Assembly (NCBI GenBank): GCA_000091205.1
Contig: AP006499.2
Reading direction: 5' to 3' (one strand)
DNA length: 64,000 nucleotides
Source of the DNA: Cyanidioschyzon merolae
Taxonomy: Eukaryota
Positions 1 through 35,269 of the stretch are shown piece by piece (position 1 is the first letter of the stretch; each line of letters starts with the position of its first letter). The notes under the pieces were generated by a model that saw nothing but the letters and a program-made list of their open reading frames with translations, searched no databases and was not told the DNA's origin. The translations under genes were made by a program, and so were the position numbers.

Positions 1-2279
1 CTCGGATCAGAGAATATGATACATACGCTACTCTGAATCCCTCGGCACGACGCCGTACCACGTCGCTAATCAAAGCATGTACTTCGCTGGTGCGAACAGT
101 ATCAGACCGACCTAAAACAGCAATATTGCGTGCTCGTCAACGCCGAGCGTTACTTCAACCGCACCTTTTGGGTGCTGTAGCCCTACTTTACTGGCTCGGA
201 AAATTGGAGACTGATGAAACGGAATCTTGGGATGGCGATGGAAGCAACTGACTAGCTCGTGGTGGAAGACATCGAAGTAGCAGAGAGTTCGGAACAGATG
301 TCGCAACGATACTTAGCGTCCCGTCAAATCGTCGATGTTTGTCGTGATGATCTCGGCCACGGAACGACGAACCTCTTACTCAAAGGATGGTGAAAAGGTG
401 ATGCACCCTTCATTGCATCTTGCGCTGCCATTCGTTCACGAATGGAGTTATCCAGAGCCAAGCTTACCCTCCCTTCGAATCAGAGCACACCAGCCGCAAC
501 ACGCGTCTCTTTGGTGTGGTTCTCGTACGGTACATCAAGACCCAGAAAATAACTCAAGATATTTGCATAGTGTACTGAATAGCCTCCTTCGCGAGCTATA
601 GCTCGAATTTGCGAGCAAGTATCAAGCATTCGAAAAAGTTCGCCAAGGCTATTGGGAAAGCTTGTCCAAGCATTCTGTTTCACAGAAAGGAATTAGATAG
701 AGGATGAACGGGTGATGGAGACCAACGGAATACACATCTGAAAGAACCATGTGAAACTTTAGCCTAACTCGATCGCGGAGACTCATTTCCGACCGTAAAA
801 GGTAGATGAAGCGCAAGAATTCGCGGTAAGTGGGAAACCCTGCTTACATTAAAAACGTGGTAGTCTCCATATCTCTCAATCGCCGGGAACGGAGCCAAAG
901 ACCTGAACGGAAATCGGATGAAGCTGCTCATGTCTTGTAGGGCTCGGTATTATCGGGAGCCGGGCGTGATGTCCAACAGATGGCGTTCGAACAAATGGAG
1001 CACCAGCATAGTCGGAACCCGTCACGACGCTGCAAGCATCATATCAAGCTGAGTTGGATACATTTTGAGCCTCGCTCAGAGGGCATTTTAGCTCCCAGAT
1101 AGCTTATGAGCGGAATTTTTGGCGGGCATACATGAAAACGTGCTGGGGCCGCCAACAGATTCGGTTGTTCACAGGCCATAGGCTTGCATGAGCCAAAATT
1201 TTCAATCACTTTCAAAATGAAATGAGCGACAAATCGGGACGTTTGGTTGAAGCCTACGGCGCTGGACGTGATGAGGCGCACATGCGCTGCGCTTGTACTC
1301 CTTCGGCGAGAGCATGTAAAAATTGTGGGAATTTGATTCTGCATCGGTCCAATTGCCGTATTCAGGACGTCATACTCGAATCACGAGCACAGGTGTACGG
1401 TTGAACTGGAACAGAGGGAGAGAGTGAAGCAAAGCCGGATGCATGAGATGGTGTCCAATAAACTGACCCAAGCTCAAGTGGCGAGGCATTTGACGGTGAG
1501 ACGCTTGTGTCTTGTGATTCCACCAGCAGCAAATGCGCAAAATAAGTTGCTGCTCTGAGCCTTCAGCGTCTTGATCAACTTCCGCATTTGTCTCGTGCTT
1601 CTGAAGCGTCCAGTGGCTTTCTGTCGAGTAAACTTTTAGGGGAATGGAATAGAACTCAGCGTTGACATTCTGCAGAAATGCTGTAGGCTTCCAACGAAAA
1701 AATAGGTAACCAGAAGAGTGGAGACAGGATTATTGGGACGTGCATGGCGCTGTTGTGCTAGGGTCAGCAATTAGGAGAGGTGGGTGCTCCTTCTAGATGC
1801 ACTGGGACGGCTTTCCTCGGTAACTGGTGAACGATTATCATTTTACATGGCATTCATTACTGAGTATACTCAGTGTTGAAAATGAACCGGATTTCTACGT
1901 CCTCAGTTCAGAGAGTGAATCCAAAATCAGCCTTGCTCCCTAAGTGTTGTTATTCTTCAACGTCTTGATGCCGCCCCCGTAGCCACATACGACGTGCAGG
2001 ACAATCCCATCGAGTACTGGAAGCTGGCACCGGATCGCAGCAGCGCACGAAGCGATACACCAAGCAAGGAGACCTGCACCAGTAAATGCGGCTGGCGAGG
2101 TAATCAGGACAAGCTCGCCATAATGTGTATGAATGTCTTTCACAAAAGATACCTGCATAGGTGCCGAGCAAGGAAGCTGCCAACGCTTCTACTCTGTCGC
2201 TGCCTTCACGCTGTACATATAGAAGTCAATCGCCGGCATCCAGCGGCTTTCACGAGTAGAGCCCTGTCACGGATTCAGC

Positions 2280-3389
2280 TCATAAACGCGAAATATTGCT
2301 ATCGATGCTTGATATTCTCTTATTTGCCTTACGGTATCGGGCAAGCGCAAAGTGCGCATCCAGGTAAACATCCGCGTGTGCGTCAACGGACTTGGTAATC
2401 GGGTCTGCGTAGCCACCACCCATACAAATGACGATTCCTGCCTCAGATTCCTGAAGAATATAGTCGAGCACGATTTGATTTCGAAGTCGCAACCCGGCCC
2501 TCGTGAGCGCAAGGCGACCGAGCTTATCTTCAGCGAGTGCGTCGACACCTGCCTGGTAAAAGACGAGATCTGGATCATGCTTCGCCATGATACGTGGCAA
2601 CCAGACTTCTAGGATCTGTAGATAATCGGTATCATCGGTATTGTCCTCAAACTCAATATCCAAGTCGCTCTTTTGCTTTCTGAAAGGATAGTTGCCGTGC
2701 CCGTGAAATGAACAGGTAAACACGCGACTATCTCCTTGGAATATCGCAGCCACACCGTTCCCCTGGTGCACATCGAGATCGAGAACGAGTATTCTTCTAA
2801 CCTGTGCATAATCGCGGAGCGCTACTCGAGCTGCAATTGCGATGTCATTGAAGACGCAAAAGCCCTCTCCATGGTCCGGAAACGCGTGATGCGTTCCGCC
2901 AGCAATCTGAGCTGCACACCTGCTGCGACCCTCGACAACATCACGCATGCAGGCTACGGTGCCACCGACGGATGCCAGGGTCCTTTGCACAAGGGCTGTG
3001 CTCCACGGGAATCCGATACGTCGAACCTCTATATCGGAGAGTTTGCCCTTAATAAACCGGTCAACATAGTCCTTAGAGTGAACGAGCAGAATATCGTCTA
3101 ACTCGGCGAGTGGAGATACCAGAAAAGGTACTCCTTTGAAAGAGCTGTCCGCTTCGAGCTTCCTCCTGACTAATTCATACTTTGCCATAGGGAAGCGATG
3201 CCCGGCCGGCAGCTCTACCGCATATACGTCCGCAAAGTATACTCGCAGCGCTCCGGCGCTCCCTATCTCTGCCGCGTGAGCGCAGCGCGAGCTTCGGTGT
3301 CTGGGCCAGGTGGTGATTTTTGGGCGGAATGCGAGTTTTCTGTAGAAAGGATTAATCCAGCTACTTAACCGCGAAGCCTGCAAATACAT
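2280..3389 (-). CDS. Histone deacetylase superfamily protein (class II / HDA14-like or AcuC-like). The track ORF runs 2280..3497 from a TTG; the first in-frame ATG is at 3389.
   Basis: HDAC motifs are present in the translation: RVYFADVY...AGHRFPM, GGTHHAFPDHGEGFCVFNDIAIAA, GGGYADP. The 405-aa ORF has no interruptions. Confidence 0.82.
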   Translation of the reverse strand: MYLQASRLSSWINPFYRKLAFRPKITTWPRHRSSRCAHAAEIGSAGALRVYFADVYAVELPAGHRFPMAKYELVRRKLEADSSFKGVPFLVSPLAELDDILLVHSKDYVDRFIKGKLSDIEVRRIGFPWSTALVQRTLASVGGTVACMRDVVEGRSRCAAQIAGGTHHAFPDHGEGFCVFNDIAIAARVALRDYAQVRRILVLDLDVHQGNGVAAIFQGDSRVFTCSFHGHGNYPFRKQKSDLDIEFEDNTDDTDYLQILEVWLPRIMAKHDPDLVFYQAGVDALAEDKLGRLALTRAGLRLRNQIVLDYILQESEAGIVICMGGGYADPITKSVDAHADVYLDAHFALARYRKANKRISSIDSNISRL

Positions 3390-3516
3390 AGCGTTCTGTG
3401 AAACTGGACAAGAAGACAGCGTGCAGGACGAGAGCTGTGTTCGCAGCACTGGAACGCAGCGGCACACCACGCACCGGGTGCAGGCGTGCCTCGGCAATAG
3501 AGGACTTTTCAGGTCT
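3390..3516. promoter_or_regulatory. Short (about 127 bp) divergent intergenic region between the HDAC (-) and VPS36 (+) genes; a putative bidirectional promoter.
   Basis: Head-to-head arrangement of two confidently called genes. No motif evidence. Confidence 0.35.
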
Positions 3517-4974
3517 ATGGCGGTTCCCGCCAGTTCTGAGGCCTTGCAGTGCTTTGACTTGACAACTTCCGGTTTGCCAGTGTTGTGGGGTTCAGAGAAA
3601 CTTCAGGTCGTTGCGGAGAGAGTAACCGTCGACCTGAGTTCGACTGCAAGTGCGAGCGACTCTCGTCTAGAGGGCACCACCGTGTACGTCACTTCGCAGC
3701 GACTGCTCTTGAAACCGCAGCATCAACAGCAGCTATTTGGTACGGATCTCTCAGATGTAACCTTCATAAAAGCAAGCAAGTCGGGTAGTTTTCTGCTCTG
3801 TGGAGCCTGTGGGAGAACGAGTTCCGCGCTTGTTCGGGTTGGAAAGGGAACACTGCTACGCTTTCACTGGGCAGCAGACCCCAGCAGCGTGGCGAGCTTT
3901 CTCAACAACCTGCGTAGCGCTGTCGAGCTGCATAAGAACGCGAAACTTAGACAACAAGGCACTTTGCGTTGCAAAGATATTGCTGGAAATGACTTCGAAG
4001 CTCGCCCTGCAGGTGTAGCCGGCGTTCGGGCAGCGGAACAGCGCCTAAGAGACGAGCGTAAGCAGCTTCTCAACAGGGCGTTTACCGATATGAACCACCT
4101 TAGTGTCGATGCCGAGAACTTGCGCGCGATGAGTGAGGCGCTGGTTCGCGAAAGCCAGAGAATGAGACACGAAGCATTGAGTCAGGACCCGGAAGCGCTG
4201 CTCTCCGTGATGCTCCGTGACATGATGCGTTTCGCCGAGGATCGTGTTCGTATTGCTGCTGAACCGTCGGAACGCTCGAAGAGTTCAGAGTATTGTTCAC
4301 ACCTGGCGAGGGATCTTTACGATTTTTTGGAGCCGATTGTTGCGAAGAACGGTGGGCTTCTGCATATTTTCGACGCATATGTTCTTTACAACAGCACCCG
4401 ACCAGTCACAGATATTGTTCCAGCGGATGATCTATGCGATGCCTGTGCACAGTGGCCCATTCTTGGTCTCCGCCTTCGACTTGAAATGATGGAATCTCAG
4501 CTCGTCATCCGTACGACAGAAACGGTACCTGTTTCACAAAGATTACTCGAACGAATCAAGGAAGTTGGGTTTATGACCTCACTGCAGGTTGCAGATCAGT
4601 TCCATATACCTGTGCAAGTGGCAGCGTGGCAATTAGAGTCCGCAGAACGCGAAGGTTTTCTCTGTCGTGATGAAGAGGAAACCGGCTGCGTGCGGTATTT
4701 CCTGAATGAATTCGATGCAATCTATGCCGCGGAAATTGGTCGCGAGACGCCAGCAACCGGTACGGCTGGTAACGAATTGTTGCCTACGCCTCAGACAAGC
4801 GCAAATGAGCACATTCTAGAAACCGCTCGTGCTTTTACGCCACCTATTTTTCCAAATACAGCAAACATCAAATCAGATGCCATGAGTGTTGAGACGCTTC
4901 GTCGGAGACGAAGCGCTCAACCGGACCAAGACACCCCAAAGAGTCTTTCTGAGTGGGACGCGACTCCCCAATAG
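3517..4974 (+). CDS. VPS36: ESCRT-II subunit Vps36 (EAP45). It has an N-terminal GLUE domain and a C-terminal winged-helix region.
   Basis: N-terminus reads SGLPVLWGSEKLQ...TTVYVTSQRLLL (GLUE). The C-terminal region MTSLQVADQFHIPVQVAAWQLESAEREGFLCRDEEETGCVRYFLNEF is characteristic of Vps36. ATG at 3517; the track starts at GTG 3421. Confidence 0.75.
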   Translation: MAVPASSEALQCFDLTTSGLPVLWGSEKLQVVAERVTVDLSSTASASDSRLEGTTVYVTSQRLLLKPQHQQQLFGTDLSDVTFIKASKSGSFLLCGACGRTSSALVRVGKGTLLRFHWAADPSSVASFLNNLRSAVELHKNAKLRQQGTLRCKDIAGNDFEARPAGVAGVRAAEQRLRDERKQLLNRAFTDMNHLSVDAENLRAMSEALVRESQRMRHEALSQDPEALLSVMLRDMMRFAEDRVRIAAEPSERSKSSEYCSHLARDLYDFLEPIVAKNGGLLHIFDAYVLYNSTRPVTDIVPADDLCDACAQWPILGLRLRLEMMESQLVIRTTETVPVSQRLLERIKEVGFMTSLQVADQFHIPVQVAAWQLESAEREGFLCRDEEETGCVRYFLNEFDAIYAAEIGRETPATGTAGNELLPTPQTSANEHILETARAFTPPIFPNTANIKSDAMSVETLRRRRSAQPDQDTPKSLSEWDATPQ

Positions 4975-5419
4975 CGCAGTGCCACCATGTGCGACATTTC
5001 ACCGCATTGCACCCTACTGTTTTCGGTTGGAACACGAGTTCCCACGCCGGCTACCCGAAAACTGCGTGCCGAACGAGCCGTCAAGCGTTCGTAGACGACG
5101 AGACACTTTTCGGATCTCCAGACTAGAAAGTTCTTATTTTTTTGTAACAGTAAAACTACTTTGGCTGTTTCGTTTCGTCATCAGTTTCGCTGTTCTTGAA
5201 CGTAGATCGAATCCAATCATAAGGCTCGATGAACCAAAAAGCTGTCAGGCCCACTAGCAGACCCCAACGTGCTGCTGCTCCAACATCTACTGGACGTAGC
5301 CGACGGAAAAGCTGCTGCAAAGCTGGTACACCTCGAGGTCTCGCTGCGTTCATATCACAAACACAAGTGTCTATCCCCGGAGCACCTCGAAAACAACTCG
5401 TACAGCGGTCAGTCGTCCG

Positions 5420-6060
5420 GGATGCGCGATGTGCCCTGGCGGCCGCACGCGCTGCGCATTGTCCGTTTCTTTCTCGATGATAAAATTCGGTTGACCATGG
5501 ATCCCAGATTGCGGGACATATAATGATGATTGAAAACGCGTCCATCTTGATGCATCTTTCTTCGAGTTCCATTGCTTTCACTTTCTTTCGAATATACTGG
5601 TCGTTTTTTACTTTCTATCATGTACCGAGTGCCTGACTGCGCCCACAGTAGCGCTTATACCGGTGGAGCTGATGCAGCACGGATACAGAACAGCTGTGTC
5701 GTACCACTGAGGGTTTCGGATCGAGGAACGATTCACCTGATACGGAATCAGTGCGGACAATCATTCTGGGAGCCTGAAAAGTGGGCAGAGAAACCTGGTG
5801 CCTGCAGCAGCGCGGACCGATATGCTAGGAGATAATTGCAATATTGGCGACGCCCAGACGCAGTATCCTAGTACTTGTCTAAGAATAAAGAGTGTTGCCG
5901 ACAAGCTGTGCAGGTCTCGCCACAGCACCTGCCACTCGAGGGAGTATGAAGCACTAGCCCGGCAGACCCGTCCGGTTCGCGGGACCTTCCACACAGAAGG
6001 TAAAGTTTCGAAGATACGGAAACCTTTCCCCCTTCAACGCTTTCCATGAAGGTCGAAAGA
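5420..6060 (+). repeat. Dispersed repeat family A, copy a (at least 640 bp). It is homologous to 19290..19935 (approximate bounds).
   Basis: Similarity to the 19.3-19.9 kb copy is visible by eye over the whole length. For example, gtaccgagtgcctg...ccactgagggtttcggatcgaggaacg...cattctgggagcctg...caggtctcgccacagc... appears in both. Confidence 0.7.
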
Positions 6061-6099
6061 ACCTGTTATTGAGTTGCTATTTAGTGGTTAGTTTCTGTT

Positions 6100-6290
6100 C
6101 TTTCGACAGTGGATCGGGATTCGCTTTCATTCTGGGAGCCTGCAGACTGCGCAGACAGACCTACTGCCTGCGACAGCACGGAGCGATACGCAAGGAATCC
6201 ACTGCGACCCAGACGACGCTTAGACGCAGCATATCAGCTCCTAGTCCCAGAATAAACTGCGTTCCAGACAAGCTGCTCAGGCCGCACTAA
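6100..6290 (+). repeat. Partial tandem re-duplication of an internal segment of repeat A. It corresponds to about 5755..5940 of copy a.
   Basis: cattctgggagcctgcagactg...tagtcccagaataaactgcgttccagacaagctgctcagg resembles copy a at 5755..5940 and copy c at 19645..19800. Confidence 0.6.
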
Positions 6291-6666: not shown

Positions 6667-8484
6667 GTGTTTTCAGCAGCGCTGCAAAAATCGCAGAAGA
6701 ACTGCAGCACGCAACGGGAAATGAGTCCAACGATCAGATTGCTCGGAACTGAACCATCTTGTATGCTGTCCAGAACGGTATCCAAGCGCCTTGCGCGTCG
6801 AAATGTCAGATACATACTGTTGCTTGTCGTTCTAACCGGTGTCCTGTCAGGTTTTCTCTTCCTGCGTAGCACTTTCTCCACGTACTATGCGGGTGAAAAA
6901 CTGAGACAGTGTGAAGAACGGCTTGCGAAAGGAGAGGCTCTTCTGCTACAGCGGCGTGTATCAAATATGGACGAAAATACAGAACAGCCTCCTAGAAGGG
7001 TTGCGGCTAAACACTTCTTGCGATCTGTGCTTGTTTTCGATGCCGTGGAGCACTTCAGCTCGGTCATCAATACAAATGCTCCAGGACGAGCAACGTTCCT
7101 GGGAACTAGTTCCCGAGGACGAGGTAGACCAGGATGGGCATATGAACCACGTCCCTTACTTCTGAACTTGTCCAATGGCGCCTGGTATTTGCCTTTGGAC
7201 GGGGAACCGCCATCGATTCCGGCAGTATTGTTATGGTTAGACAGATCCAGGAATGAGCGAAGGCTGCTCGTATGGACGAGCACAACCGCGGGGATTGCGT
7301 ATAACCCTCCTCGTGAGTGCGCGGAAGCTGGATCCACCTGCCAACTGGAACTCATCACATCGAGTACAACCCTTGCGGGTTCCTGTAATGTTGAGAAGCG
7401 CAATCTGAGCCTTTTTCTGAGCGCAAATGGAGCAGCAGGCACCTCATGCCTAGCAGAGGTTCGAATGCAGGTTACACTTACAAGCACAAACGCGCAAGAA
7501 TGGGAACCAGAACCGTCTCTACAGACGCTCGCAATCGTGCGCCCGTTCACGGAGGACCAGATACCTAAGCTCATGCGATCTCTGGATCAATGGAATGATC
7601 CATGGCGCTTCCCGTGCGAACGAAGCGGAGACTTTGACCGCCCGGACCTCGTATTCTACGCAAACAATGAACAAGCTCTCGTGTCGGCTCGAGCCGTTTT
7701 TCAGCGCAATCATTCATGGTCTTCCTGTTTCCAACGGGTGCGCTGGATTGAAGCCAATGTTGAACCAACCGTCGACGTTCATCCAGATGGCACCTGCTTC
7801 CAGTTCTACAGCATCTTCGATGATCCGCGATTCCGGAACTACTATCAGTATTTCTTTCTGATGGAGCCTGACGTCCACCCGATACGGGCTTTTTGGTTGG
7901 ACTCGATTCAGAGACAAATCAAACTCAGTGCACCTCAGGCCACGTTCTGGATACGCGGCTCCACATCAAAGTGTGCCGGTTGGTACGCAGCGAACGACTT
8001 TCATATTAACGGAAATGCCCTATACAACCTCTCATCCCGACAGTTTCGCGATTATCTGATACGTGTGCAACGCGCGTTTCAGCCGCGAGGCCACGTTCGC
8101 CACGCTCCGGGCTGCTCTGGCGGCTATGGTGGATTCGATCATTCTATCTTCCATTATGCCGTAGAAATAGCTTCGAAAAATTCGCACAAGTGGAAAATGT
8201 ATCAAAAGCTGTGTTTCGACGATCGGAAATCACCTGTTTGGAATTTCTGCAAACACAGATTTCTGCCTTGGCGAGTATACACGGAGAGTAACGGAAGTGC
8301 GTCCCTCGTACACAGCAGCTGGGGTAATAACGTAGATTTTTGGGACCCAGCAGTTCACGGCATCAAACGGCTTGAAACTAGTATGCTTGAAATGATCCGC
8401 CTTTGGGAACAGGATCCTTTTCCACTACATCCTCGTTTTCGTGCTTTTGCGCTGCTACACTGTCGCAAAAGGCAGCTTTTTTAA
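6667..8484 (+). CDS. Hypothetical type-II membrane protein. It has an N-terminal signal anchor and a large luminal domain, and may be a Golgi glycosyltransferase-like enzyme.
   Basis: Uninterrupted 605-aa ORF. Single hydrophobic segment ILLLVVLTGVLSGFLFL near the N-terminus. FDDPRF / LMEPDVHP segments could be a DxD-like motif. No firm family assignment. Confidence 0.5.
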   Translation: MFSAALQKSQKNCSTQREMSPTIRLLGTEPSCMLSRTVSKRLARRNVRYILLLVVLTGVLSGFLFLRSTFSTYYAGEKLRQCEERLAKGEALLLQRRVSNMDENTEQPPRRVAAKHFLRSVLVFDAVEHFSSVINTNAPGRATFLGTSSRGRGRPGWAYEPRPLLLNLSNGAWYLPLDGEPPSIPAVLLWLDRSRNERRLLVWTSTTAGIAYNPPRECAEAGSTCQLELITSSTTLAGSCNVEKRNLSLFLSANGAAGTSCLAEVRMQVTLTSTNAQEWEPEPSLQTLAIVRPFTEDQIPKLMRSLDQWNDPWRFPCERSGDFDRPDLVFYANNEQALVSARAVFQRNHSWSSCFQRVRWIEANVEPTVDVHPDGTCFQFYSIFDDPRFRNYYQYFFLMEPDVHPIRAFWLDSIQRQIKLSAPQATFWIRGSTSKCAGWYAANDFHINGNALYNLSSRQFRDYLIRVQRAFQPRGHVRHAPGCSGGYGGFDHSIFHYAVEIASKNSHKWKMYQKLCFDDRKSPVWNFCKHRFLPWRVYTESNGSASLVHSSWGNNVDFWDPAVHGIKRLETSMLEMIRLWEQDPFPLHPRFRAFALLHCRKRQLF

Positions 8485-10762: not shown

Positions 10763-13700
10763 CTGACGAGGGCAAGCAAGCCTTTAGGAGCCTCCTCAGT
10801 AGGAGGCTCTCTATCTCGTGACGCAAAGATCAGCGGCGGAAACCCGAAAACAGAATCCGCCTGTTTGATGCGGTACAAGGCATCCGGTATTCTGGCGGTT
10901 GCCCGGCACACGCCTGCGCTACGTCCGAGATGCTTGTAATGCTTTCGCTGGGCAAGGAGGCTGTATTTTGAAAGCTTTCAATTTAAAGTGTACATTTACT
11001 AATTTTTGTACCACGTACCGCTAAACTTCGTGCAGGTTATCTTTTTCAAGCAGTTTGGTGTCAGATATGGCAGCTAAAGTGAGCAAACCTTCTATATGGA
11101 AGATGTTGGCGATCGTCGTTCCAGGAGAAAGTTTTTGATCGAGTTGCAACGGCGTAGTGGTGCTGGGAACGATAACTAACCGTTTCGCTTCGAACTTGAA
11201 CGGCGAAGTAACCACAGTGTTTCGTTTTGGGCGCTTGCATGGAATATTTTATGATTCAAGTTCCCATTGGAGGTGAGACTTTTTACTCAGTGGCAAAACG
11301 CAAGGAGGCCGAGCGGCGACTCGCGCGCTTGGCCTCAGAGTCACCAGGGAGCAGTGCCGATTCTTCTGTCCTCGGCTCCAACGTACCCGCAACGCCAGGA
11401 CTGGAACGAGCTGGAGACGTCTCGTTGAGTCATGATGAAGAGGTTTCTAGCGAAAAACCGAAAAAATGGCCCCGAGTATGAGAAGCTTGCCGCACGGAAA
11501 GCGCCATGCTTGCGGTGCCGTTCACATGGTAATATTAGGTGCTTTCGCGTGAACGCGGTTGCCCTGCCATGTTTTTCATAGTGGAGCATTCCTTAGTCAA
11601 TCAGGAGATACAAGGACACAAGAACAATGCTGGTACTCAGGGTGTGGGTTCCAAAGCGGCATATGCGCCGTTTGGATTGTATCACGTCACAACGGGACTG
11701 GGCGTATGCAGAGATTGCAGCATACATGAACGCTGCCGTTGACCAGAGATGAAACCTCAACTACCGACGAGTTATCGGAATGCAGCACCTGCTGCTGCCC
11801 TGAGCAACACGTCCTACCCCGTTGCTTGGTCAAATGTTTCGCTCGTTTGCATGAGGAATCCTATCTGGATTGCTCTTGTCATGCAGACATATTCAGCAAT
11901 ATCCAATAGCGGAACCCTAGTACAGCTCACCAGTTGTGCGGGAAGATCGTTCCCAGTACATACGTATGGTGCTGGAGCCTCACCAGAATCCTGAACGCAC
12001 CACGCGAGACTCCATTGCCCCCTTTCCTGACCACTGAGTTTTTTCCATCGGAAGTCGTTAGTGTTTCAACGCAATGCCGAAACTGGGAACTGAACGATTC
12101 CATAGAAACTTTGCTCGACAGAGCCGGTTAACGCTGTTTAGCCCCGAGAAATTTCCGGAGTTTACTCGATTTGTTCAAGTTTCGGTGGAGAGAGTGCATG
12201 CGCGCATGGTTGCTGGTGGAATCAGACCAAAGCATGCCACTCACCTTCGTTTACCTCACCATCTGAAGGTCGGTTGTTCTGGAGTGACGAAAAATGGCGT
12301 TGTCTACGAGCCGGGCAGCATAGCGTGGAGAGGAGAAGCCACGAAGTGTGTTTCTCCTCAGGATGAAGTCGTACGCGATCCTGCACATGTCGTATTTCGT
12401 AGGTGACCGCAGTATTGAATCGCCGTACGCGCAAACATTATCGGGAAACACACTTATCCCTTCTGTACGAACACCATTTTACTCTTCGTTGGCGACACAT
12501 ACATAGTTCTAAGCTTTCTCTCGAACCAAGTCTCATCGAACGAGAAGAGCATCCGTCCTTAACGTAACAAGAGTTCGCGCGTCAGAATCGAATCCACTGT
12601 GTATTGTTCAAGGCGCAACGCTCTCCCACAGACGCACTCTTTTTTTCCTCGGCCATCCATGTCTCTTCTTCACCGCTCGTATTGACAGTGCGAAAACCAC
12701 AAATCATGGAACTGGGTTTTTGATGTTTCTCAGAGAACGCACGAACAGGACTGGAATGACCTGGAGAGAGTCGTACAGAGAAAATTTGCTGAGTTCTATG
12801 TTGAGTGCGCGACGTTCAGACTAGGGACACAGCAAAGACTGCTTCAACTACTTGCTGAACATTAATTGGCTGACTTGGATAAGTAAACCCGTTTTTCGAT
12901 AGGTAGCGGTGATTCCATGACGTCTCCCCGCGATGTTTCTCCGCCCAAACGATACACCCTTTTCGAAGAATAGTCGGAAGAAAAAACAAAAACAGAAACT
13001 GCGTGCTTGTTCAAGAGTACTGGAATTCACTGCTCACCGAACATAGCAACGAGACTTGTCATGGCGAAAGAATCTAAGGGCGTGTCAGATTAAAACAGAC
13101 CACTGAACTGGGCGCTCTGTTCATCGCTTTCGATTTCCGAACTGTTTCATGTACAGCCCCGACATTTGATGCGCGGTTCGAAGAGCTTACGAATGCATAT
13201 ACTTTTAGAACTCTATGCTGACTTCTCGGAATGTTTACTTCGATGCTCTTCTACTGGAATTCGTGACATCAGTGTAATCAAGATGATTCGAAACGCCCCC
13301 GAACAATGGTTCGTGCACTAAGCAACGTCATTATCAAATGAATACGTACATGCCTCGACTGTTCTCCTTTGCTTACGTGTCGCCAGCTTCAATCAAGCAT
13401 ACTTCAAGGTTCGAAATTTTCGTTCCGAGCTAACTCCTGTACGTTGCGATTCTAGCGCCTGACTTGATGATAAGAGCGACTCAACGTCGTCCGCTGAGAA
13501 CTTTTCTGGAAGCTCATACGGAAAGTTCATTCAAGTTTTGACATCAAATTCTCGATTTCGCTCGAAAGACATATCCCTCCCTCTTGATGGCCATCGACGA
13601 GCCGGCATGAGTGAGCACGATGCTACATGTCAAGCAATATGATTCCAGAAACTCCCGTTTTTCTATCTGGATGGACAATTGGTCTTGGATTTGGACTTCA

Positions 13701-14449
13701 GTCATCACAGAGAACCGTTTCTATCCAAGGTACACCTCGGCTTTGCACGAAGAAGCTTAGGCTAATTAAAAAGTTCCCGGCACGGTCTCCAGTCTTTGTT
13801 TTCATTCTGATACCATTTTTAGGGAGAACAAGATCGAATTCCACGAATCCTTAATGGAAAAGAAGAGCGAGCGCTTCCACGTGCAACGGACATAGTCCTC
13901 CCCGAGCCAATCGCCCAGAAGAAATCAGGAATCTTAGAGTACGGTGCTGGACGCGAGAGCGGAGGAAACATCCAATGAAGCTTTCTGTGCCTATCAAGCG
14001 AACGCACCAACTGATGAAGAAAGCATTCACGTGCCGCAGCGCTGCGCTTCGATGAAGAGAAGGTGCGGTGGACGCATGGGAAACCGCACCCCAGCCCAGC
14101 GTGACCGGTGCGAAGGACACACCGAAGATGTACACAAAGCAGATGAAAATAACCAGAGGATCCCAGCTGGCAACGATCGTATATTTATGAAACGGACCGC
14201 CAACACCGGGACGCAGTGAATTCCGGATTTTGAGGCTGCCATCAATGTATCTCGACTGCTAAAATCGTAGCTGGAGGCACAGCAGAAACCAGCGCATTAG
14301 AAACTGAAGATAACAGAGTCGAAAAGGAAGCAGTGGTAGAAAGGATGCACAAATGCTAATGCTGATGGCAGTGGGAAAAGAATCAGAGTTTCAGACGAAC
14401 GCTAGACTTCGACAAGGCGATGCATTTCATTCGATCCAAACAGTTCAGT

Positions 14450-14900
14450 ACAAAATATCAGTGAAATAGAAAATGTCCCGCGACCATGCAGGATCAATGA
14501 GCACCCACGGATAGATGCCTCCCAGGCTTTTTTGACCCGCTGTCTGCTATCGGTTTCAGCTTCTCACTGTACGCTTCGAGCGTGAGGGGATGTCCAACAA
14601 AATTTGGACCCCCAGCTCCTCGGGTCCCGTCTCCAGCACCGCATATCGTCTGATACTGATGGCGGCGTTGAAGTCTCGGTTCATAAACTCCATACGTTTT
14701 GATGCCTCTAGTTGATCTTATCAATGTGCGTATTCCCCGAGCTCGCGCTTTCAGTACCATTTGCTGCTCTGCCAACTCTCCGTGCGTGTCCAATGCCGAA
14801 GCGCTCCGTTGGCTTCTCTCCGTTACGGCCTTCTGAAGCGTACATTCCTGCTCTTTCCATAAGTTTGAACATGAACGCACTTCCTGACGCCTTTAGATGA
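14450..14900 (-). pseudogene. Degraded 3' fragment of the TnpB/Fanzor-like element (copy 4). It retains the RuvC-III motif, is frameshifted, and carries the conserved 3' tail.
   Basis: The minus-strand translation contains RMEFMNRDFNAAISIRRYAVLE. The upstream KARARGIRTLIRSTRGIKTYG aligns to ERRAKVRGLLALVSTTSDGKKRMEF in copy 1. The conserved tail ggaggcatctatccgtgggtgc lies at about 14501..14522 (reverse complement). Confidence 0.6.
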
Positions 14901-15177
14901 TTACTTCCCCGGAGAGAGACGGACTTGCTGAGGGACTATGACATGTATTCCCCGTGTGTCACCGTGTGCTGAACGCATTAGCGATTCGCCCAATGGAGCG
15001 ATCACTGCGTACCAAGATAGAAAATACTCATAGGATGGGGTTGAACCACGGAGCTAACGGAGCAATGGAAAGCAACTGTATCCCTATAGAATTCGCAAAA
15101 GCTCGGGCGCAAGGGGAACGATGAAATGCAACGTTGTCCGATAGAATAGCGTCTCCAGACCTGCAGAGCAAAAGTCT

Positions 15178-15448
15178 TCAATTATTCCACAATGTGGAAT
15201 GGTGTTTTCTGAGCCTTCTATTCGAGTTCGATCGTACATTTAACAGGTTAACTGCTCTGCAAATACCCGGATAAGTTGTGACGGTTTCGTCCGAAGGACG
15301 TCTCATCGACCGAAAACATAAATGGACGTCCCTGTGTTTCATACCGATCGTAATGTTCCAGGAACGCTGTCGTTGCGATTGGAAGGAAGATGCCATTGCT
15401 TGAACGATGACTCTTTTTGAGATTGTATCCCAGTGTTTTCAGGATCAT
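15178..15448 (-). pseudogene. Possible remnant of a DDE transposase (Tc1/IS630-like LKxLGYxxKK...FxDEtsF segment).
   Basis: ORF MILKTLGYNLKKSHRSS...RPFMFSVDETSFGRN resembles the region around the first catalytic D of DDE_3 transposases. It is short and interrupted. Confidence 0.25.
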
Positions 15449-16432
15449 AGGCGCGACTTGGTGAGAAACAGAGACGCCTGTGGCGGCTATTATCGTCGCT
15501 GTTGCTTTCCGAAAATGGTGATCAACGGATCGTTTTCTAAGATCGACTGCAAGCGACCTCTATGAATATCGATCTCTGGCACGGAGTGCATCTACATTTT
15601 TCTTATAGTTTTCGCCAACCATCTGAGTACGTCGGTATGACTGTCCTAAACGAGGAATGCAGTCCTCCTTGGACTGTTCAGAAATGAATGTAAATGCTAC
15701 ATGCAAATCATCTACGATCTACACTATGCATTGCATTGCGATTTCGATCTCCTAGACATCGCAGCGGAAGTGAAACAGAATTTAGTACAAAGACTACAAG
15801 AACGGAAACCTCGGGCCTCTTTGATGGTAGCGTTCACGCATCCGATAGATGCCAATATGACACATCTGGTGAAAAAGCAGCTAAACATTCGCGTCGATTC
15901 GTTTTCTGGGTCTGTTCAGGGCATGGTGCTGGCATGTGCGTGCTGGCACTCACCAGCACTCACTGAACGTTGCTTTGCAGTCGCGAAATGCGAAAGCATC
16001 CCGCTCCAACGCGAGTTCGCGGTGATGAACTTGTCTTCAGCATCGCTTCCAAAGTCCGAATGCGACCAGCAAATGCCTCTTCATGGGAAGCTTGCGGCAA
16101 ATACCATCTCAGTTTGACATGGATGAATTCGTGCTCGACATTTCACGAGTGCAGCGCAAGAGGTCAATTCACTGTCCGCTTACACCTGTGCATGCGACGG
16201 CAACATAGAAACCGGAAACGAGTATTCTGCATTCACAGGAAATACCCTGCAGCATAGGCATCTGGATCCCATCCAATCGTTCAGAGCGCTTTTCCGCACG
16301 GCGCTGCTGAGGGCGCACTGATCCGTAAAACGCTTGGGATGTTTCGGTAGACATCTCGCTGCCTTTCGAGTCGAGCTTGTTGCGAGAGGAAAACCCAGCA
16401 GCCGGGGGACGTTCACGAGTTGCGTTTTTGCC

Positions 16433-18398: not shown

Positions 18399-19289
18399 TA
18401 TCCAGCGTTATACACAACAATGAAACTGCGAGTTGCAATCAAGTAAGAACGCAAACGTTCATGCAACACGAACGGAAAAATCGTTTCGTGATCATCGACG
18501 ATGGGCGGCAGCGTGCTCGCGATGCAGGGCTTCGAAGGATCGCGGCGTTCGGTGCAGCGGAATCGGGATGCCAGAGACGCCAGCACACTTAACCTTTCTG
18601 TGCCTGTGCTGGAAAAAAAGAACGCAGCTATCTCTTTGAGAGACATCAACATCTGGGAATCACTGTGGTAAATGAAGGCCAGCCACTTACTTTGAGTGTA
18701 GTGCTAGCAACTGATGGTCCCGTAACTGAGCTCCAGCACTCACCAGTTGTCAGCGAACTCATACTCTACCCCCTAGGTGGAAGGTCCAGCGAACCAGATG
18801 CGCACACGGGACCAGTGTTACGCGTACCTAATCACTGGTGGGTGCCAAGCACAGACCCGAGTCGCCAACCGACGGCAACGCTTTCCATGTACGATCACGC
18901 AGGAGAGAGGCGGCTCCCAGGATTCATCGTAACAGCCAAGTTTCTCCAATGTGTTGTGAAGCGAAAGCAAGTTTTGCATCCGCAGGCTGTCCGAGCACAA
19001 ACTGACAACGAGACCCAGTTCTACGTCAGGTGAAGCATGCCTCGAGCAGACGCCGTCTGCGGTACGGCAACGCCGTTCTGTTTCTGTGCTACGACAGCAC
19101 CGGCGCTACAAGCGCTATTGAGGCGGATGTTCACGGGCAGGCACTCGGCGCCCGATAGCACGTCTGAAACACCATTACATCCGAGAAGAAGTATGGGTTA
19201 TGAAACTTGGACGTAAGGCGTGGAATGACGAAAGTTCCACCGCGCGCAGGCATCAAGCGCACAGAGTCGCGGCACGCTCGCCTGTGTGA

Positions 19290-19935
19290 GAAGTTTTCAC
19301 ATGGAACAAAATCCGCTGCATTTGCTGTTGCCGCTGATTTTTCTCCAATGACAAAACGTTTACATTGTACTTGGATTCCAGATAGCGAGATGGATGGGTA
19401 TAGCTGATCGAAAAAGTGTCCATCATGATGCACTCTACCTCCATGCTCCGTTCCTTATACTTCCTTTCGGATGTACAGATCGTTTTGTGCGTTCTGTAGT
19501 GCGACCGAGTGCCTGCTTTGGGCACCCGCCTTAGCGCCTATACCACTGGGACGGATGCATCATGGAGATAGAACAGCGTTGCCATACCACTGAGGGCGAC
19601 GGATCGAGGAACGCTTTACCTGATACAGCGTTGGAGTCCAGAATAATTCTGGGAGCCTGTAGGCTAAACAGACAGAACTTTTGGCTGCGAAAGCACGAAC
19701 CGATATACTAGGAGTCTACTGCGATCTGGGCGACGACCAAACACAGCATCCCGCATCTAGTCCCAGAATGAACCGCGTTGCGGACGAGCTGCTCAGGTCT
19801 CGCCACAGCGCCCGCTACTGGGGGGAGCACGAAGCACGAGTCCGGGAGACTCGTCCGGCTCGCGGGACTTTTCGCCTAGAGGGAGGATTCTTCAGAATAT
19901 GGAAACCTTTTCCGCCTTTTCAAAGTTTATCGTAG
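19290..19935 (+). repeat. Dispersed repeat family A, copy c. It lies about 400 bp upstream of the start of TnpB/Fanzor-like element copy 1.
   Basis: Homologous along its whole length to 5420..6060. Minus-strand small ORFs in both copies are also related (MEVECIMMDTFSI vs MELEERCIKMDAFSI). Confidence 0.7.
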
Positions 19936-20318
19936 AAGGGGAAAGAAATTGCCGTATCGTTGCTCGCTAGTCGTGAGTCTCTTTTCTTTGTTCAACATAG
20001 CGCAGTCGATTTGCGCACCAGGGAGATCTGTCAGTTTCGAGTCACGACGCGTATGCTGCCGTTGAAGGGAAACGCGATCCTGATCAATAGCGTGCTGCTC
20101 TAATGTGCAAGTTGTACTTGCGTTAAAGACGTGGCAAAGTACAGTTCTTCAGTTCATTTGTGTTTCAAACCTCAAACAAGTGTATTCAACTGTTTTTTCG
20201 CAGTATATAACTGAAGCGTTCAAAGTCCGTTACAAAAAATAAAGAAGGAAAGTCATGGAAAACCAAGTCGACGATCCTGGAGGCCCAGTGTGGCTGGCCG
20301 CCAGAAAAAAAACAAAAA

Positions 20319-21776
20319 AATAGTGCCGAGTCCAGAAGAAAGCGAAGTGAAAAAGAAGCATTAGGGGAGGCTCTACGTCGAAGGCAGCAAGAAAGACGTC
20401 TGTACAACGAGATGGCGGTGAAAGCCTGTCTTCGTAAACATACCAAGGATCCGTACAAGGAAAAGTTGCGAGGCGCTATCAGAAACCGTGTCGAGTTCTA
20501 ATCCATGAGTATTATAAAGGCGTCATCAGTACGAATGCATTTGGTGTCGGAGATGTACGGAGACGTGACGCACATGGAAACAGTCGAGGTTCCGGATGCG
20601 TTTTCCGACAAGACTTCTATTCGTCACCTGATGCTTGGTACAGGGGAATCGTCGACGAAAAAAGAGCTAGTCCATGCCTTCCACGAAAACTTTGCAGATT
20701 TCCGCTTCGAGGGTACTCGATACAAGGGTGACGGAAGTATTTACACATACGGGGCGATGAAGTACATCACGAACCTGAGGAACCATTTGACTATGAACCC
20801 GGAGCGTTTCATGATACGCACCGTCTTTGCGCTGTACCCGGGACTGTCTCGCAAAGGAGTATGGGCGATTATCAATGGGATCACGAACGATCGCAAGCAT
20901 GAAGATGACAAGGAGGCGGATCTCGCGACGAAGAAAGTGCAGGATAACGACTCTGTCGTTCACGCGGACCCTGGGAATACGAATATCATAACCATCGCAG
21001 CACCCAAGCGTGGGGAAGATGGTACTGACGGTACCTTGCGTCAGAAAGATATGTGTCTTTTGAGGTTCTCGAGAGCAAGATACTATCGAGAATCCGTTAT
21101 AATGAATGCGAGAAAGAAAATCGACACATGGAATGCAGGAATGAAGGATCACCTGGAAGCTTTGAGGGAGGTGACGAGCCACGGGGCGGACTTTACAGCT
21201 TCTCGGAAATTCATGGAAGTTCGTGTTGCTCATTGGGATGCGCTGTAGAAAGAATATACAAAGCCCCGGCGGGCTCGTTTGCGTATGAATTTGTATTGTG
21301 GGAGGCAGCGTGCATTCGCAATCTTTTTCAATGAGTTGCGTGCCCTGAAGGAGGACGAGCGTCAAAGTCTCGTAGTAGCATACGGAGCAGGGCGCTGGAA
21401 GACCCAAAAAGGATGTACACCAGCTCCAACGACAAGAACGTACAAGGAGTGCGCACGGCGTTTTGTTACGGTGCCTGGAGATGAGTTCCGAACATCGTAT
21501 GTGCATCATGAACTGTGATGTACGCTTCAGAGAGTGGAGATGGAAAAGTGCCAGAGGAGCCCTGAGGATATAAAAAAGTACGGAGCGCTGACAGATGAGC
21601 AAATGGAAAGGAGGGCGAAAGTTCGAGGATTGCTTGCATTAGTAAGTACAACCAGTGATGGCAAGAAACGTATGGAATTCGTGAATCGTGACTTTAATGC
21701 CGCCGTCAATATAAGGAGATATGCGGTGCTGGAGAATAGACCTCCAAAGAAGACACAACAGGACTTAATTGGATAA
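20319..21776 (+). pseudogene. TnpB/Fanzor-like RNA-guided-nuclease homolog ORF of copy 1, interrupted by three nonsense codons. Read-through or a recently inactivated gene are both possible.
   Basis: See the element entry. At the TGA position, copy 3 has GGG and copy 4 has GAA, so the ancestral codon was probably GGA (Gly). Confidence 0.6.
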
Positions 21777-21905
21777 TCACTCAAGGTGGAATTATATGAG
21801 ACAATATTGGAAGCGGTAGTAGGTGGCCGGTCCAAAAAACTAAGAGGCGTCTGCACGTCAGCTGAAGATGTCTAGTCTAGGGCGGGTCACTCGCCGCTAT
21901 TGTAC
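20319..21905 (+). mobile_element. Near-full-length TnpB/Fanzor-like element (copy 1). A single reading frame of about 485 codons carries RuvC-I-like and RuvC-III motifs and is broken only by three in-frame stops. It is followed by a conserved non-coding 3' tail of about 130 bp.
   Basis: RuvC-I-like motif SVVHADPGNTNIITIAAPKRGEDGT (Asp codon at 20967..20969). RuvC-III motif KKRMEFVNRDFNAAVNIRRYAVL (Asp at 21690..21692). All segments 20319..20498, 20502..21245, 21249..21515 and 21519..21776 are in frame 0. In-frame stops: TAA 20499, TAG 21246, TGA 21516. Confidence 0.65.
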
Positions 21906-22389
21906 ACGGCCGCTGGTGGCAACGTTTTTCGTTTGAAAGGCGTTTGCTGTCTGTCGATCGAAGCCACCATAGGCTCACACCTAACTAGAAGCCCCGGTTT
22001 GAAACTGCATAGGCAGCGTATAGAGATCCAAATCGTCGACAAGCCACTTCTTCTCAATGCTCGCGAGCGAGCAGTTGCAAGTATTTGGAGGACACACTCG
22101 CTCGAACTAACGCACCTGTCACTGCGAGCGGTTCCACATCATGGTTGTTGTAGCGCACTTACTCTACGTGACGGTTTCCGTGCACGCAACTTTAGACGAG
22201 ATTCTTAGCGGTTGGGGTCGGAACTTAAAATGCGTCCTAGATCGGAGGCGCCCTGGCCTCGCAGGGCCTAGAGACACCCGGCCTCGACCAAGGTCAGGCG
22301 GGCACGTTCTTGACGCATTATTCGCACGCAAGCTTCCTTTTCCACCCAAGGACTCGTTTGATGGGTGGTGCACGGCGCCACTTCAGACG

Positions 22390-34084: not shown

Positions 34085-35269
34085 GTTTGGAGTACGAACC
34101 CGTCGTTGCTGGCCACTGATGCAGCCGATGAGCGCAAGTCGCCGAGACTATCCACGGTGTCCAGTAATGTGCGTGTTTATACATTTTTTTCTTGATCGCC
34201 TTTCGAGGCAGCGCATACGACGCGCTCGCCCCGTTCATGCCAGCGGTGACGCACGCTACGCTGGAAGCGATCGCTGCGATGACTACATTCCAAGTCCGAG
34301 ACCCTTTTCCACGCATACCGAAGAGACAGTAAACTTTAGCAGCGTATTGTGTGAGATGTGTCATGCAGCTGCCGAATGCCATTCCGTGAATGGCCTCAAA
34401 TGGCGGAGGATTTGTTATTCGAACGGAATCGATTGTTTCACGCGAGATGTTCGGTGAGCTTTCAGCACGGTTTTTGTGGATCGAGTTGCGAACGGCCGTT
34501 GCCAAGTATTATCGTCCGTGAATCCAGCGCAATGAATCGCTTCGTCAAAGCGTTGATTGAACCTGAAAGACCGAAACCCTGCAAGAATACCGTGTACGCA
34601 TATACTATAAATAGCGATAGAGGAAGAACGGAGGCTCGTACGTATGCATCAGATAAAGGTATCCGTTAGTTTACAAAAACCTATTTGATTGCGCCGCAGA
34701 TCTGCTTTACTCCGGTGATGGCACGAGTGCCAGCGGCGAACTGGTCAAAGCAGTTGCCCCGAACAGGCGGCCGAGAACTCTCCAACTGCGTATGAATCGA
34801 CAAGTCCCTAATGCTCCATTTCAGAACCTCGAGGCTGTATGCCTGGGAAACCTTCGAAAGAATCTCAGAGCTGGAACAGATGGCAACGTTTCTTGTTTAA
34901 TTGTTATCGGACACGACAAAGGCGGTCACCAGAAGCGTACAACTCGGAGTTGGTTCATCCCCGGTGCAGTGTATAGCAGGAGATCGACATCACGATGCAA
35001 CGCTTTGTATAGATCGTGGATGAATTACGTGCTGGACATTAATTCCTTACTGAACATTGTAAGAGAGACCGCATTCCTCCCTCAGGTCAGTCATACAACA
35101 GTGCTCAGATGGTTGCGGAATAACGGAATAAACATGTATGTGCAGTCCACGCAAAGAACTGATGTTCCTTAAGTGTGCTTGCAGTCAATGGTAGAAAACG
35201 ACCAATAGATCACGCTCTAAAAAGCAAAAGTGACGCTGATAGCCGCCGCGGGCGTCTCTGCTTCTCAAT

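Follow-up and report, generated by a model that had tools for sequence, protein, structure and literature searches.

What is the repeated DNA, here called repeat A, that occurs in a 64,000-nt stretch of Cyanidioschyzon merolae 10D chromosome 17 (the window), and does it belong with the TnpB/Fanzor-like open reading frame (ORF) that follows one of its copies? The window is assigned to this chromosome by exact identity of encoded proteins to the chromosome 17 proteins BAM82065 and BAM82069/CMQ169C. Our comparisons make it very probable that repeat A is the 5' non-coding module, ~635-640 bp long, of CMe-1A, an old transposable element of C. merolae that carries a Fanzor1 gene, and that the solo form of the module is the non-autonomous element TE-N2_CMe. 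The family is already described and is not a new element, gene or RNA. An earlier note on this DNA, made from the sequence alone, had called it unclassified, which is not borne out: it is present in Repbase and in Bao & Jurka 2013, though without an assigned transposon class.

Self-BLASTN of the window aligned positions 5527-6103 (in copy a) with 19405-19989 (in copy c) at 71.2% identity over 586 nt (E about 1e-74). It further aligned 6127-6281 with 5761-5914 (72%) and 6129-6281 with 19646-19797 (76%), and revealed an inverted match, absent from the earlier note, of 19026-19194 (minus strand) with both 19457-19623 and 5583-5740, at about 70%. A separate repeat search of the window returned the same families (D3 and D5). 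The homology of at least 640 bp that had been noticed between 5420-6060 and 19290-19935 is therefore a real repeat, placed about 45-50 bp too far to the left: a sliding-identity profile, together with an alignment of the 5' boundaries of 16 loci, showed that it begins at a T-rich tract (near 5465 for copy a, near 19338 for copy c); the homology ends near 6103 and 19989, respectively. The third piece, reported at 6100-6290, is present as well, with actual limits of 6114-6281.

The published CMe-1A consensus of 3169 bp (Bao & Jurka 2013, Mob DNA 4:12, Additional file 2; also in Repbase) was used as the reference and compared with the window by BLASTN. About 150 copies of CMe-1A, ~80% identical to a consensus of ~3 kb, have been reported; its 5' 635 bp and the entire TE-N2_CMe, an element with about 70 solo copies and a separately derived consensus, are 95% identical. 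Both elements lack terminal inverted repeats (TIRs), and target-site duplications (TSDs) were given as undetermined (PMC3627910). The same element of the same organism had been recorded by Nozaki et al. 2007 (BMC Biol 5:28, PMC1955436) as a transcribed 'novel interspersed repetitive element' of 3.2 kb, with 253 copies distributed over all chromosomes, amounting to about 5% of the genome and containing a truncated ORF weakly similar to WSV486 of WSSV; the latter is a viral Fanzor according to Bao & Jurka (PMC3627910). Nozaki et al. kept the 5' module and the Fanzor part undivided and missed the relationship to TnpB. The literature total for the family is about 220-250 copies, on all chromosomes (PMC1955436, PMC3627910). 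We found no literature on the C. merolae Fanzor element later than Bao & Jurka 2013, and a 2024 paper on dispersed repeats does not mention the CMe-1A/TE-N2_CMe family. The C. merolae genome has very few other transposons. Copies a and c and the fragments at 6114-6281 and 19025-19215 are old, with about 77-86% identity to the CMe-1A consensus and 63-76% to each other; the copies in this window are presumably dead relics.

Copy a (5465-6103, plus strand) sits between a Vps36/EAP30 gene (3421-4974) and an ORF at 6667-8484. Its T-rich tract (5465-5474) is followed by a sequence (5475-6103) that matches CMe-1A consensus 1-636 with 77.4% identity over 638 nt (E 3e-138, BLASTN); homology ends on both sides at these limits, and the DNA beyond is unrelated. 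No Fanzor sequence was found within 1 kb of copy a, either by BLASTN with the consensus or by TBLASTN, hence copy a is not a CMe-1A. The earlier suggestion that this copy, having no nuclease ORF beside it, may be a separate non-autonomous element agrees with these data. Its extent is that published for TE-N2_CMe (consensus 1-636 covers the ~635-bp element), again with unrelated DNA on both sides; it departs from the published description in its age (77% identity to the CMe-1A consensus) and in the presence of a fragment of another copy 10 nt downstream. The assignment to TE-N2_CMe would follow from the colinearity with the 5' 635 bp of CMe-1A stated by Bao & Jurka, rather than from direct alignment.

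The downstream fragment, a2 (6114-6281, plus strand), corresponds to consensus 278-445 (85.7% over 168 nt, BLASTN) and is what remains of a different copy of the family. A four-way alignment showed 66% identity of a2 with copy a, as against 82% with the family consensus, and only 7 derived sites in common with copy a; a2 is thus an independent fragment and not the local partial tandem re-duplication for which it had been taken. The arrangement of copy a and a2 recurs in near-identical metagenome contigs (L001-L004, L020, L042 and L044).

Copy c (19348-21942) is a whole CMe-1A with an internal deletion of ~570 bp and a broken Fanzor1 gene. Positions 19348-20903 match consensus 3-1553 (82.9%) and 20895-21942 match consensus 2124-3169 (87.2%, BLASTN), and this colinearity bears out the proposal that copy c is the left part of the element to which the TnpB/Fanzor-like ORF belongs. 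Over consensus 3-3169, copy c resembles CMe-1A in its order, in its identity (83-87%), in the remains of the Fanzor1 ORF and in having no TIRs or TSDs, whereas it differs from the consensus by the absence of 1554-2123, by being a pseudogene and by having part of its own module duplicated upstream in inverted orientation. The 5' module (19338-19989, plus strand), homologous to copy a, comprises the T-rich tract (19338-19347) and consensus 3 to about 640. It is followed by the non-coding leader of the Fanzor part (19990-20255, plus strand; about consensus 646-905), which is colinear and includes the hairpin-forming start of that part. The consensus ORF start at 906 falls on an ATG at 20256 in the window, from which the Fanzor1 (TnpB-like) pseudogene, with its frameshifts and internal deletion, extends to about 21881 (plus strand). 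The deletion of consensus 1554-2123 has its junction at a 9-nt overlap (20895-20903), and the lost segment is retained in the orthologous contig L029. In TBLASTN, two parts of the CMe-1 protein matched copy c in frame 3, aa 30-236 with 65% and aa 407-721 with 83%, while aa 237-406 are missing; the ancestral ATG at 20256 is in a frame different from that of both matches. The motif NRDFNAAVNIRR is still present in the pseudogene. Of the two long copies, only copy c thus has coding sequence for CMe-1 (a Fanzor1 protein, TnpB-like with RuvC), as a pseudogene.

The 3' non-coding end of copy c (21882-21956, plus strand) contains a GC-rich hairpin, a T-run, GAAAGGCG and ~14 further nt (TTTGCTGTCTGTCG). 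Consensus 3169 corresponds to 21942 in the window; the ~14 nt past this published end are conserved among copies, and the 3' ends and flanks of at least nine loci have TTTGTTGTT.GTGG in common. Relative to the published ends of CMe-1A, the copies have in common about 10 additional T-rich nt before and ~14 nt after.

Just upstream of copy c lies an inverted partial copy of the module (19025-19215, minus strand), which represents consensus 86-271 with 79.2% identity over 192 nt and, together with 19430-19620, forms an inverted repeat of about 190 bp. The spacer between this fragment and the module (19216-19337, plus strand) is within an upstream extension that is present elsewhere too: inverted fragment and spacer together are also found ahead of the module at L051/L018 and L017/L062, window positions 19160-19400 being 95.9% identical to L051, a different locus, and 19049-20000 aligning continuously with L017 and L062. 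Two more pieces of the family are present in the window. A strongly diverged fragment of the 5' module (60277-60529, minus strand; consensus 13-249, 68.5% over 254 nt, E 2e-13), absent from the earlier note, contains the family motif CCGAGTGCCTG at 60367-60377. A solo 3' fragment of CMe-1A (41417-41885, plus strand; consensus 2665-3137, 89.0% over 473 nt), matched with frameshifts by aa 589-734 of the CMe-1 protein (TBLASTN), is not part of repeat A.

Metagenomes were scanned for the family with a required exact 18-base pattern; since this requirement applies and long repeats break assemblies, the sample is biased. The 62 loci recovered from C. merolae-like contigs reduce to at least 17 distinct further loci, and the sampled populations include genomes 99.5% identical to the window. 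The family motif gave no matches in viral contigs. Of the ~17 distinct loci, six are canonical composites with the Fanzor part, two more have the module inverted beside it, and about nine are solo copies. The solo 3' limits fall at consensus 611-701 (611, 633-645, 665-668 and 697-701), mostly at 633-645, and the tree of copies is star-like, with solos and composites intermixed. These loci, together with the about 150 and about 70 copies in the literature, speak for a dispersed mobile family and against a segmental duplication, the outcome by which the earlier note's mobile-element reading would have fallen. A local duplication of non-mobile DNA within the 64-kb region would suit the position of the long copies, only 14 kb apart on the same strand; however, their flanks are unrelated, they are nearer to the consensus (77% and 83%) than to each other (71%), at least 17 other loci have different flanks, and the literature counts about 220-250 copies. 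Copy number and unrelated flanks refute this explanation, to which we attach practically no probability.

A T-rich tract of 6-10 nt stands ahead of the 5' boundary of the module (consensus 1) in every case; on average, 6.3 of the 10 nt directly before this boundary are T, the background being 22% T. At 11 solo loci no signal of TSDs was obtained, the longest same-locus match being 5.8 nt as compared to 5.3 ± 0.95 nt in cross-locus controls. The repeat search of the window returned no inverted-repeat pair at the element ends, in agreement with Bao & Jurka (PMC3627910), and pairwise comparison of all loci for empty sites found only the known internal deletion of copy c. Several established classes were considered and rejected. 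For a MITE or other TIR DNA transposon, the ends (CGATGACAAAACG... and ...TCTGTTCTTTGTTCTAT) do not form an inverted repeat and no TSD was found. The termini do not fit a Helitron (5' TC, 3' CTRR, a hairpin 10-20 nt before the 3' end and A/T insertion); a hairpin is present at consensus ~553-590, some 50 nt away from the 3' end of solo copies, and is without covariation. A solo LTR, with TG...CA termini and a TSD of 4-6 bp, is likewise at odds with the termini and with the lack of a TSD; LTR retrotransposons have not been reported in C. merolae (PMC1955436). Finally, a tRNA-derived SINE was rejected, as ARAGORN finds no tRNA in the window.

The fixed boundary at consensus 1, always after 6-10 T-rich nt, the variable other end and the lack of TIRs would also be compatible with a retroposon on the minus strand, whose A-rich tail would be read here as the T-rich tract and whose full-length or 5'-truncated retro-copies would be the solos; C. 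merolae has 26 non-LTR retrotransposons, three of them with an intact reverse transcriptase (PMC1955436), which would have produced them. We regard this as very unlikely. TSDs are lacking (5.8 nt at the same locus against 5.3 nt across loci), the tract is short and broken by C or G instead of being an A run of variable length, and neither ARAGORN nor Rfam found a tRNA, 7SL or 5S match anywhere in the window. Moreover, full composites of 3.2 kb have the same boundary with the Fanzor gene on the other strand, and three loci have the tract in the interior of a longer unit that is itself repeated.

The possibility that the module is itself functional, encoding a small protein or a structured RNA (for instance a guide or scaffold that the Fanzor nuclease would obtain from the 5' side), is largely refuted, and we consider it extremely improbable. 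In a gap-free block of 390 nt, the mismatches of copy a with copy c are distributed unevenly over the three codon positions (39, 23 and 47), and one frame is open for 57-75 codons from the first ATG in both copies (about 100 codons from stop to stop in copy a). This looked suggestive of a coding module, which was rejected: the open frame is frame-shifted in the published consensus, whose positions 1-905 hold no conserved ORF on either strand. The related minus-strand mini-ORFs that the earlier note had pointed out do exist and are a by-product of DNA homology; the encoded peptide or former ORF at which they seemed to hint finds no support, as the frame (MEL...) meets a stop after 28 codons in the consensus and is shifted or stopped in most of the 17 copies. 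With regard to RNA, two local hairpins can form in the consensus, and long conserved 5' non-coding regions are known in some Fanzor families (PMC10530073). However, for 17 copies aligned over 704 columns RNAalifold gave only -32 kcal/mol, the covariation term being -1.4; pairing in the two hairpins amounts to 79.8%, as compared to 78.6% in shuffles, 50 of 500 shuffles being as good; fold z-scores (DNA folding) range from -1.8 to +0.2; and an Rfam scan of the window had no matches. The guide RNAs of known Fanzor and TnpB arise from the 3' end (PMC10530073), and the features of such RNAs (omega RNA, fRNA) were not found in repeat A, which is located 5' of the ORF and has no conserved fold, covariation or Rfam match.

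Given that solos and composites do not differ in their 5' terminus and mingle in the star-like tree, the cis-acting left end most likely lies in the module. This left end would be used by a transposition machinery, the module would probably serve as an upstream promoter or leader as well, and solo copies would have been mobilised in trans in the same period as the Fanzor-bearing copies. Because no transposase is known for the CMe-1A/TE-N2_CMe family, we infer this trans-mobilisation and, taken alone, give it even chances. By analogy with TnpB and Fanzor systems, the guide RNA used by the nuclease would originate at the 3' end of the element and not in the module.

The relation between solos and composites may be viewed in other ways. 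The scatter of solo 3' ends (611-701), a point against our main reading, also fits truncation or deletion of composites. If solos were no elements of their own but 3'-truncated or internally deleted remnants of CMe-1A, their varied limits (611, 633-645, 665-668 and 697-701) would be expected; large internal deletions do occur, as in copy c, and the pieces covering 278-445 and 86-271 are plainly remnants. We nevertheless find this unlikely for the solos in general, as most of them end within about 12 nt of one another (633-645) with no 3' part of CMe-1A after, a repeated stop at one point that is unexpected of random deletions, and ~70 such copies have a consensus of their own (PMC3627910). A possible, though still doubtful, alternative is that TE-N2_CMe was an independent element and that CMe-1A is its fusion with a separate Fanzor part (consensus about 646 to the 3' end), subsequently amplified; the Fanzor part would have landed at the 3' end of the module or been transduced from it. 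A related Fanzor subfamily starts at consensus 648-649 without a module (L035), a boundary within a few nt of most solo ends (633-645), and the start of the Fanzor part has a small hairpin of its own (GCGCG...CGCGC), the arms of which are variant yet complementary in L035. In addition, the T-rich tract of the module abuts the Fanzor part in inverted orientation at L031/L059/L012/L064, and a tail-to-tail arrangement exists in the L043/L023/L054 cluster. On the other hand, only two or three independent junctions were seen, one of them (L053/L016) is not clean, and the adjacency could reflect nested insertion or rearrangement in repeat-rich DNA. The fusion model is compatible with the identification as CMe-1A/TE-N2_CMe; only the direction of derivation changes.

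The module and the Fanzor part have been seen head-to-tail (CMe-1A), head-to-head (L031/L059) and tail-to-tail (the L043 cluster). The module-less Fanzor part that starts at ~648 in L035 and the inverted module of L031/L059 are a point against a single element and indicate possibly separable ones. It is conceivable, but in our opinion improbable, that the ~640-bp module and the Fanzor part are two separable mobile units that repeatedly abut, the Fanzor nuclease reading the T-rich tract as a motif for insertion or as a TAM-like motif.

With the module taken as the left end of CMe-1A, the element can be compared to IS200/IS605- and IS607-type TnpB elements and to characterised Fanzor loci (Saito et al. 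2023, PMC10432273; Jiang et al. 2023, PMC10530073). In all of them the nuclease gene is inside a transposon without classical TIRs or TSDs, and conserved non-coding DNA is found on both sides of the ORF in TnpB/Fanzor loci and CMe-1A alike. The short A/T-rich motif at the left boundary of CMe-1A may be comparable to the transposon-adjacent motif of TnpB/Fanzor, as a candidate only. Unlike the IS200/IS605/IS607 TnpB elements, CMe-1A has no associated TnpA or other transposase. Its 5' non-coding region is far longer (905 bp), with the first 640 bp being itself an independently amplified repeat. Characterised TnpB/Fanzor systems have their guide RNA 3' of the ORF rather than in a module on the 5' side.

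In practical terms, a correct annotation has been gained: the two intergenic repeats of chromosome 17 are, with the probability given above, relics of CMe-1A and TE-N2_CMe, a family whose description preceded by a decade the demonstration that Fanzor is an RNA-guided nuclease. Leads on the spread of a Fanzor1 element and its nuclease-less companion are offered by the constant T-rich left boundary and the ~14 conserved nt past the published 3' end, and also by Fanzor parts that lack the module or have it inverted and by the recurrent inverted partial duplicate upstream of the module. Should the module and the Fanzor part prove to be separable units, and the T-rich tract a motif read by the nuclease, TE-N2_CMe, without a nuclease of its own, would hitch-hike in a eukaryote on a maintenance system guided by RNA; C. 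merolae, whose genome is complete, tiny and genetically tractable, would then be suited for testing what Fanzor does for its transposon.

Comparison of the window with itself by BLASTN recovered the repeat pair proposed in the earlier note, with 5527–6103 matching 19405–19989 at 71.2% identity over 586 nt (E about 1e-74). A pairwise alignment, together with a sliding-identity profile, placed the limits of homology at about 5465–5475 to ~6103 for one copy (copy a) and at about 19338–19348 to ~19989 for the other (copy c), with unrelated flanks, so the coordinates first proposed lay ~45–50 bp too far to the left and were otherwise right. The same search matched 6127–6281 with 5761–5914 (72%) and 6129–6281 with 19646–19797 (76%), and found an inverted match not listed before, between 19026–19194 (minus strand) and both 19457–19623 and 5583–5740.

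The repeat belongs to an element that is already known from the literature and has an entry in a repeat database. Nozaki et al. (2007; PMC1955436) reported a transcribed 3.2-kb interspersed repeat with 253 copies and a truncated ORF resembling the WSSV protein WSV486, and this ORF was identified by Bao and Jurka (2013; PMC3627910) as Fanzor1, a eukaryotic homologue of TnpB. The latter authors gave about 150 copies of the element, CMe-1A, each ~80% identical to a ~3-kb consensus, and found no terminal inverted repeats (TIRs) in it or in the non-autonomous TE-N2_CMe; target-site duplications (TSDs) could not be determined and the class of both was left unknown. We aligned the 3169-bp CMe-1A consensus (Additional file 2 of that paper) to the window. 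Copy c corresponds to consensus 3–1553 (19348–20903, plus strand, 82.9%) and 2124–3169 (20895–21942, plus, 87.2%), and on this alignment it is the left module of a single, complete-ended CMe-1A that has lost consensus 1554–2123. The Fanzor1 gene of this element is a pseudogene that retains the motif NRDFNAAVNIRR. Its TBLASTN matches, to aa 30–236 and 407–721, are in frame 3, and the ATG of the ancestral gene (20256) is out of frame with them. Copy a (5475–6103, plus) covers consensus 1–636 at 77.4% and, judged from the sequence, is a Fanzor-less element with exactly the extent reported for TE-N2_CMe. Both suggestions made before, that the repeat forms the left portion of a Fanzor element at copy c and a separate non-autonomous element at copy a, agree with the 2013 description. 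Further matches are at 6114–6281 (plus, consensus 278–445, 85.7%), 19025–19215 (minus, 86–271, 79.2%), 41417–41885 (plus, 2665–3137, 89.0%) and 60277–60529 (minus, 13–249, 68.5%), with weaker 3' relics at 14513–14853 and 35947–36296 (about 2737–3088, 69–71%).

Other copies of the repeat could be sampled from metagenomes, in which there are contigs that match the window at 99.5% identity. A scan of metagenome contigs for a family motif gave 62 loci (prefixed L below), reduced by consensus BLAST and then flank clustering to about 17 distinct ones besides the two in the window, a sample biased by its exact-match pattern and by the breaking of assemblies at long repeats. About 9 are solo copies of the module, starting at consensus 1–4 and ending at 611–701, mostly 633–645; six are canonical composites running on into the Fanzor part, two have the module inverted beside the Fanzor part and one is a short fragment. 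This was the check on copy number and Fanzor association that the earlier note had proposed, and it establishes a dispersed, multi-copy family whose members occur with the nuclease gene as well as without it. In a distance tree, 17 copies form a star (63–76% pairwise identity) in which solos are mixed with composites, which indicates a single old period of amplification.

The fragment at 6114–6281 had been taken for a 190-bp tandem re-duplication of copy a. It is 66% identical to the matching part of copy a versus 82% to the consensus, and has only 7 derived sites in common with copy a; it is a relic of a different member of the family, situated 10 nt past copy a and independent of it, and did not arise from copy a by local duplication. 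The inverted fragment (consensus 86–271) recurs, with a ~100–130-bp spacer, ahead of the module at at least three different loci (window 19025–19347; L051:3–190, L051/L018; L017:1100–1362 and L062:13657–13919, L017/L062), and this foldback-like upstream extension was therefore propagated with the element, in a variant of it. Breaks near consensus 271–278 also occur in several other family fragments, 6114–6281 included. At an orthologous locus in a lineage ~92% identical to 10D (L029:76–2260, compared with window 19348–20905) the 570-bp segment deleted in the window is still present, so the internal deletion of copy c is recent. Many copies have a ~78-bp tandem duplication at consensus 2117–2196, the right breakpoint of this deletion.

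Relics of an older, more diverged kind are also found in the window. A Fanzor-like pseudogene extends over three frames at 900–1678, with 32–40% amino acid identity to CMe-1 aa 453–709, and seems to come from a family other than CMe-1A. Two old dispersed repeats are inverted (14471–15753 versus 34978–36332, ~69%; 13239–14051 versus 54107–54922, ~65%), and parts of them (14513–14853, 35947–36296) match the CMe-1A 3' region, suggesting that there is a second and diverged family of Fanzor elements whose common flanks are longer. The long ORFs of the window encode ordinary eukaryotic proteins (histone deacetylase, Vps36/EAP30, Alg9-like mannosyltransferase, GST, TTI1), two of them exact matches to C. 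merolae 10D BAM82065 and BAM82069 (CMQ169C). The 535-aa ORF at 22141–23748 has a periplasmic solute-binding domain of bacterial type (SBP_bac_11, E 3.5e-21), unusual in a nuclear eukaryotic gene, and may be plastid-targeted or of horizontal origin. Three tandem arrays (48598–48819, 59104–59563 and 61104–61583; units of 74, 93 and 96 nt) consist of copies mutually 96–100% identical.

The hint of a peptide encoded on the minus strand of the repeat did not hold up: the start ATGs differ between copies a and c, and the MEL... mini-ORF behind the copy-a version meets a stop after 28 codons in the consensus; in most copies it is broken by a frameshift or otherwise interrupted, and in copy a it extends into unrelated flanking DNA. 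A 138-aa ORF predicted there by metagenome gene callers (5153–5569, minus), which starts inside copy a and enters the flank, has no counterpart in the C. merolae annotation, judged from consecutive accession numbers, and looks like chance read-through of a decayed repeat. One open frame is common to copies a and c, and mismatches between the two are skewed by codon position (39, 23 and 47). Neither feature holds when the family is considered: the consensus is frame-shifted in that frame, and consensus 1–905 has no conserved ORF on either strand. Two hairpins can form in the consensus module, one 5' subterminal and one of 10 bp at about 553–590, with folding energies that are not unusual and no covariation across copies (79.8% paired versus 78.6% in shuffles). 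RNAalifold over the whole module was weak (−32 kcal/mol, 704 columns), and Rfam and ARAGORN gave no matches.

In all 16 boundary-intact loci a T-rich tract directly precedes consensus position 1 (on average 6.3 of the last 10 nt are T, versus 22% T in the window), and upstream of this tract homology ceases. About 10 of these T-rich nucleotides are conserved among copies, as are ~14 nt past the published 3' end (TTTGTTGTT.GTGG; window 21943–21956 and the 3' flanks of L018, L051, L065, L009, L055, L037, L035 and L021), from which the Repbase CMe-1A consensus seems to stop a little early on either side. The termini of the element are not inverted repeats, and TSDs were not detectable (longest same-locus match 5.8 nt versus 5.3 nt in cross-locus controls).

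CMe-1A may have arisen through the fusion of two separable units, in which case TE-N2_CMe would not be a deletion derivative. This is suggested by a related subfamily, whose Fanzor parts begin at consensus 648–649, where most solo copies end, either lacking the module (L035:2617) or with it inverted alongside, its T-rich tract abutting this point (L031/L059; L031:4649–4660, also L059, L012 and L064). However, clean junctions are few and that of L053/L016 is messy (L053:1719–1873). The Fanzor part begins with a small GCGCG...CGCGC hairpin, whose arms are altered yet complementary in L035.

The identity and structure of repeat A come directly from these comparisons; its mechanism we infer. In Fanzor/TnpB loci that have been characterised, the guide RNA is located 3' of the ORF, and the TAM of the nuclease is often matched by a short left-boundary motif (PMC10530073); on that analogy the module would not be the guide RNA, and the T-rich tract may be a motif for insertion or a TAM. 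Solo and Fanzor-bearing copies have the same 5' terminus and the same age, and neither TIRs nor TSDs. Read most simply, the module would carry the left-end cis sequences of a mobile element, and probably also serve as its upstream leader or promoter, and the solo form would have been mobilised in trans.
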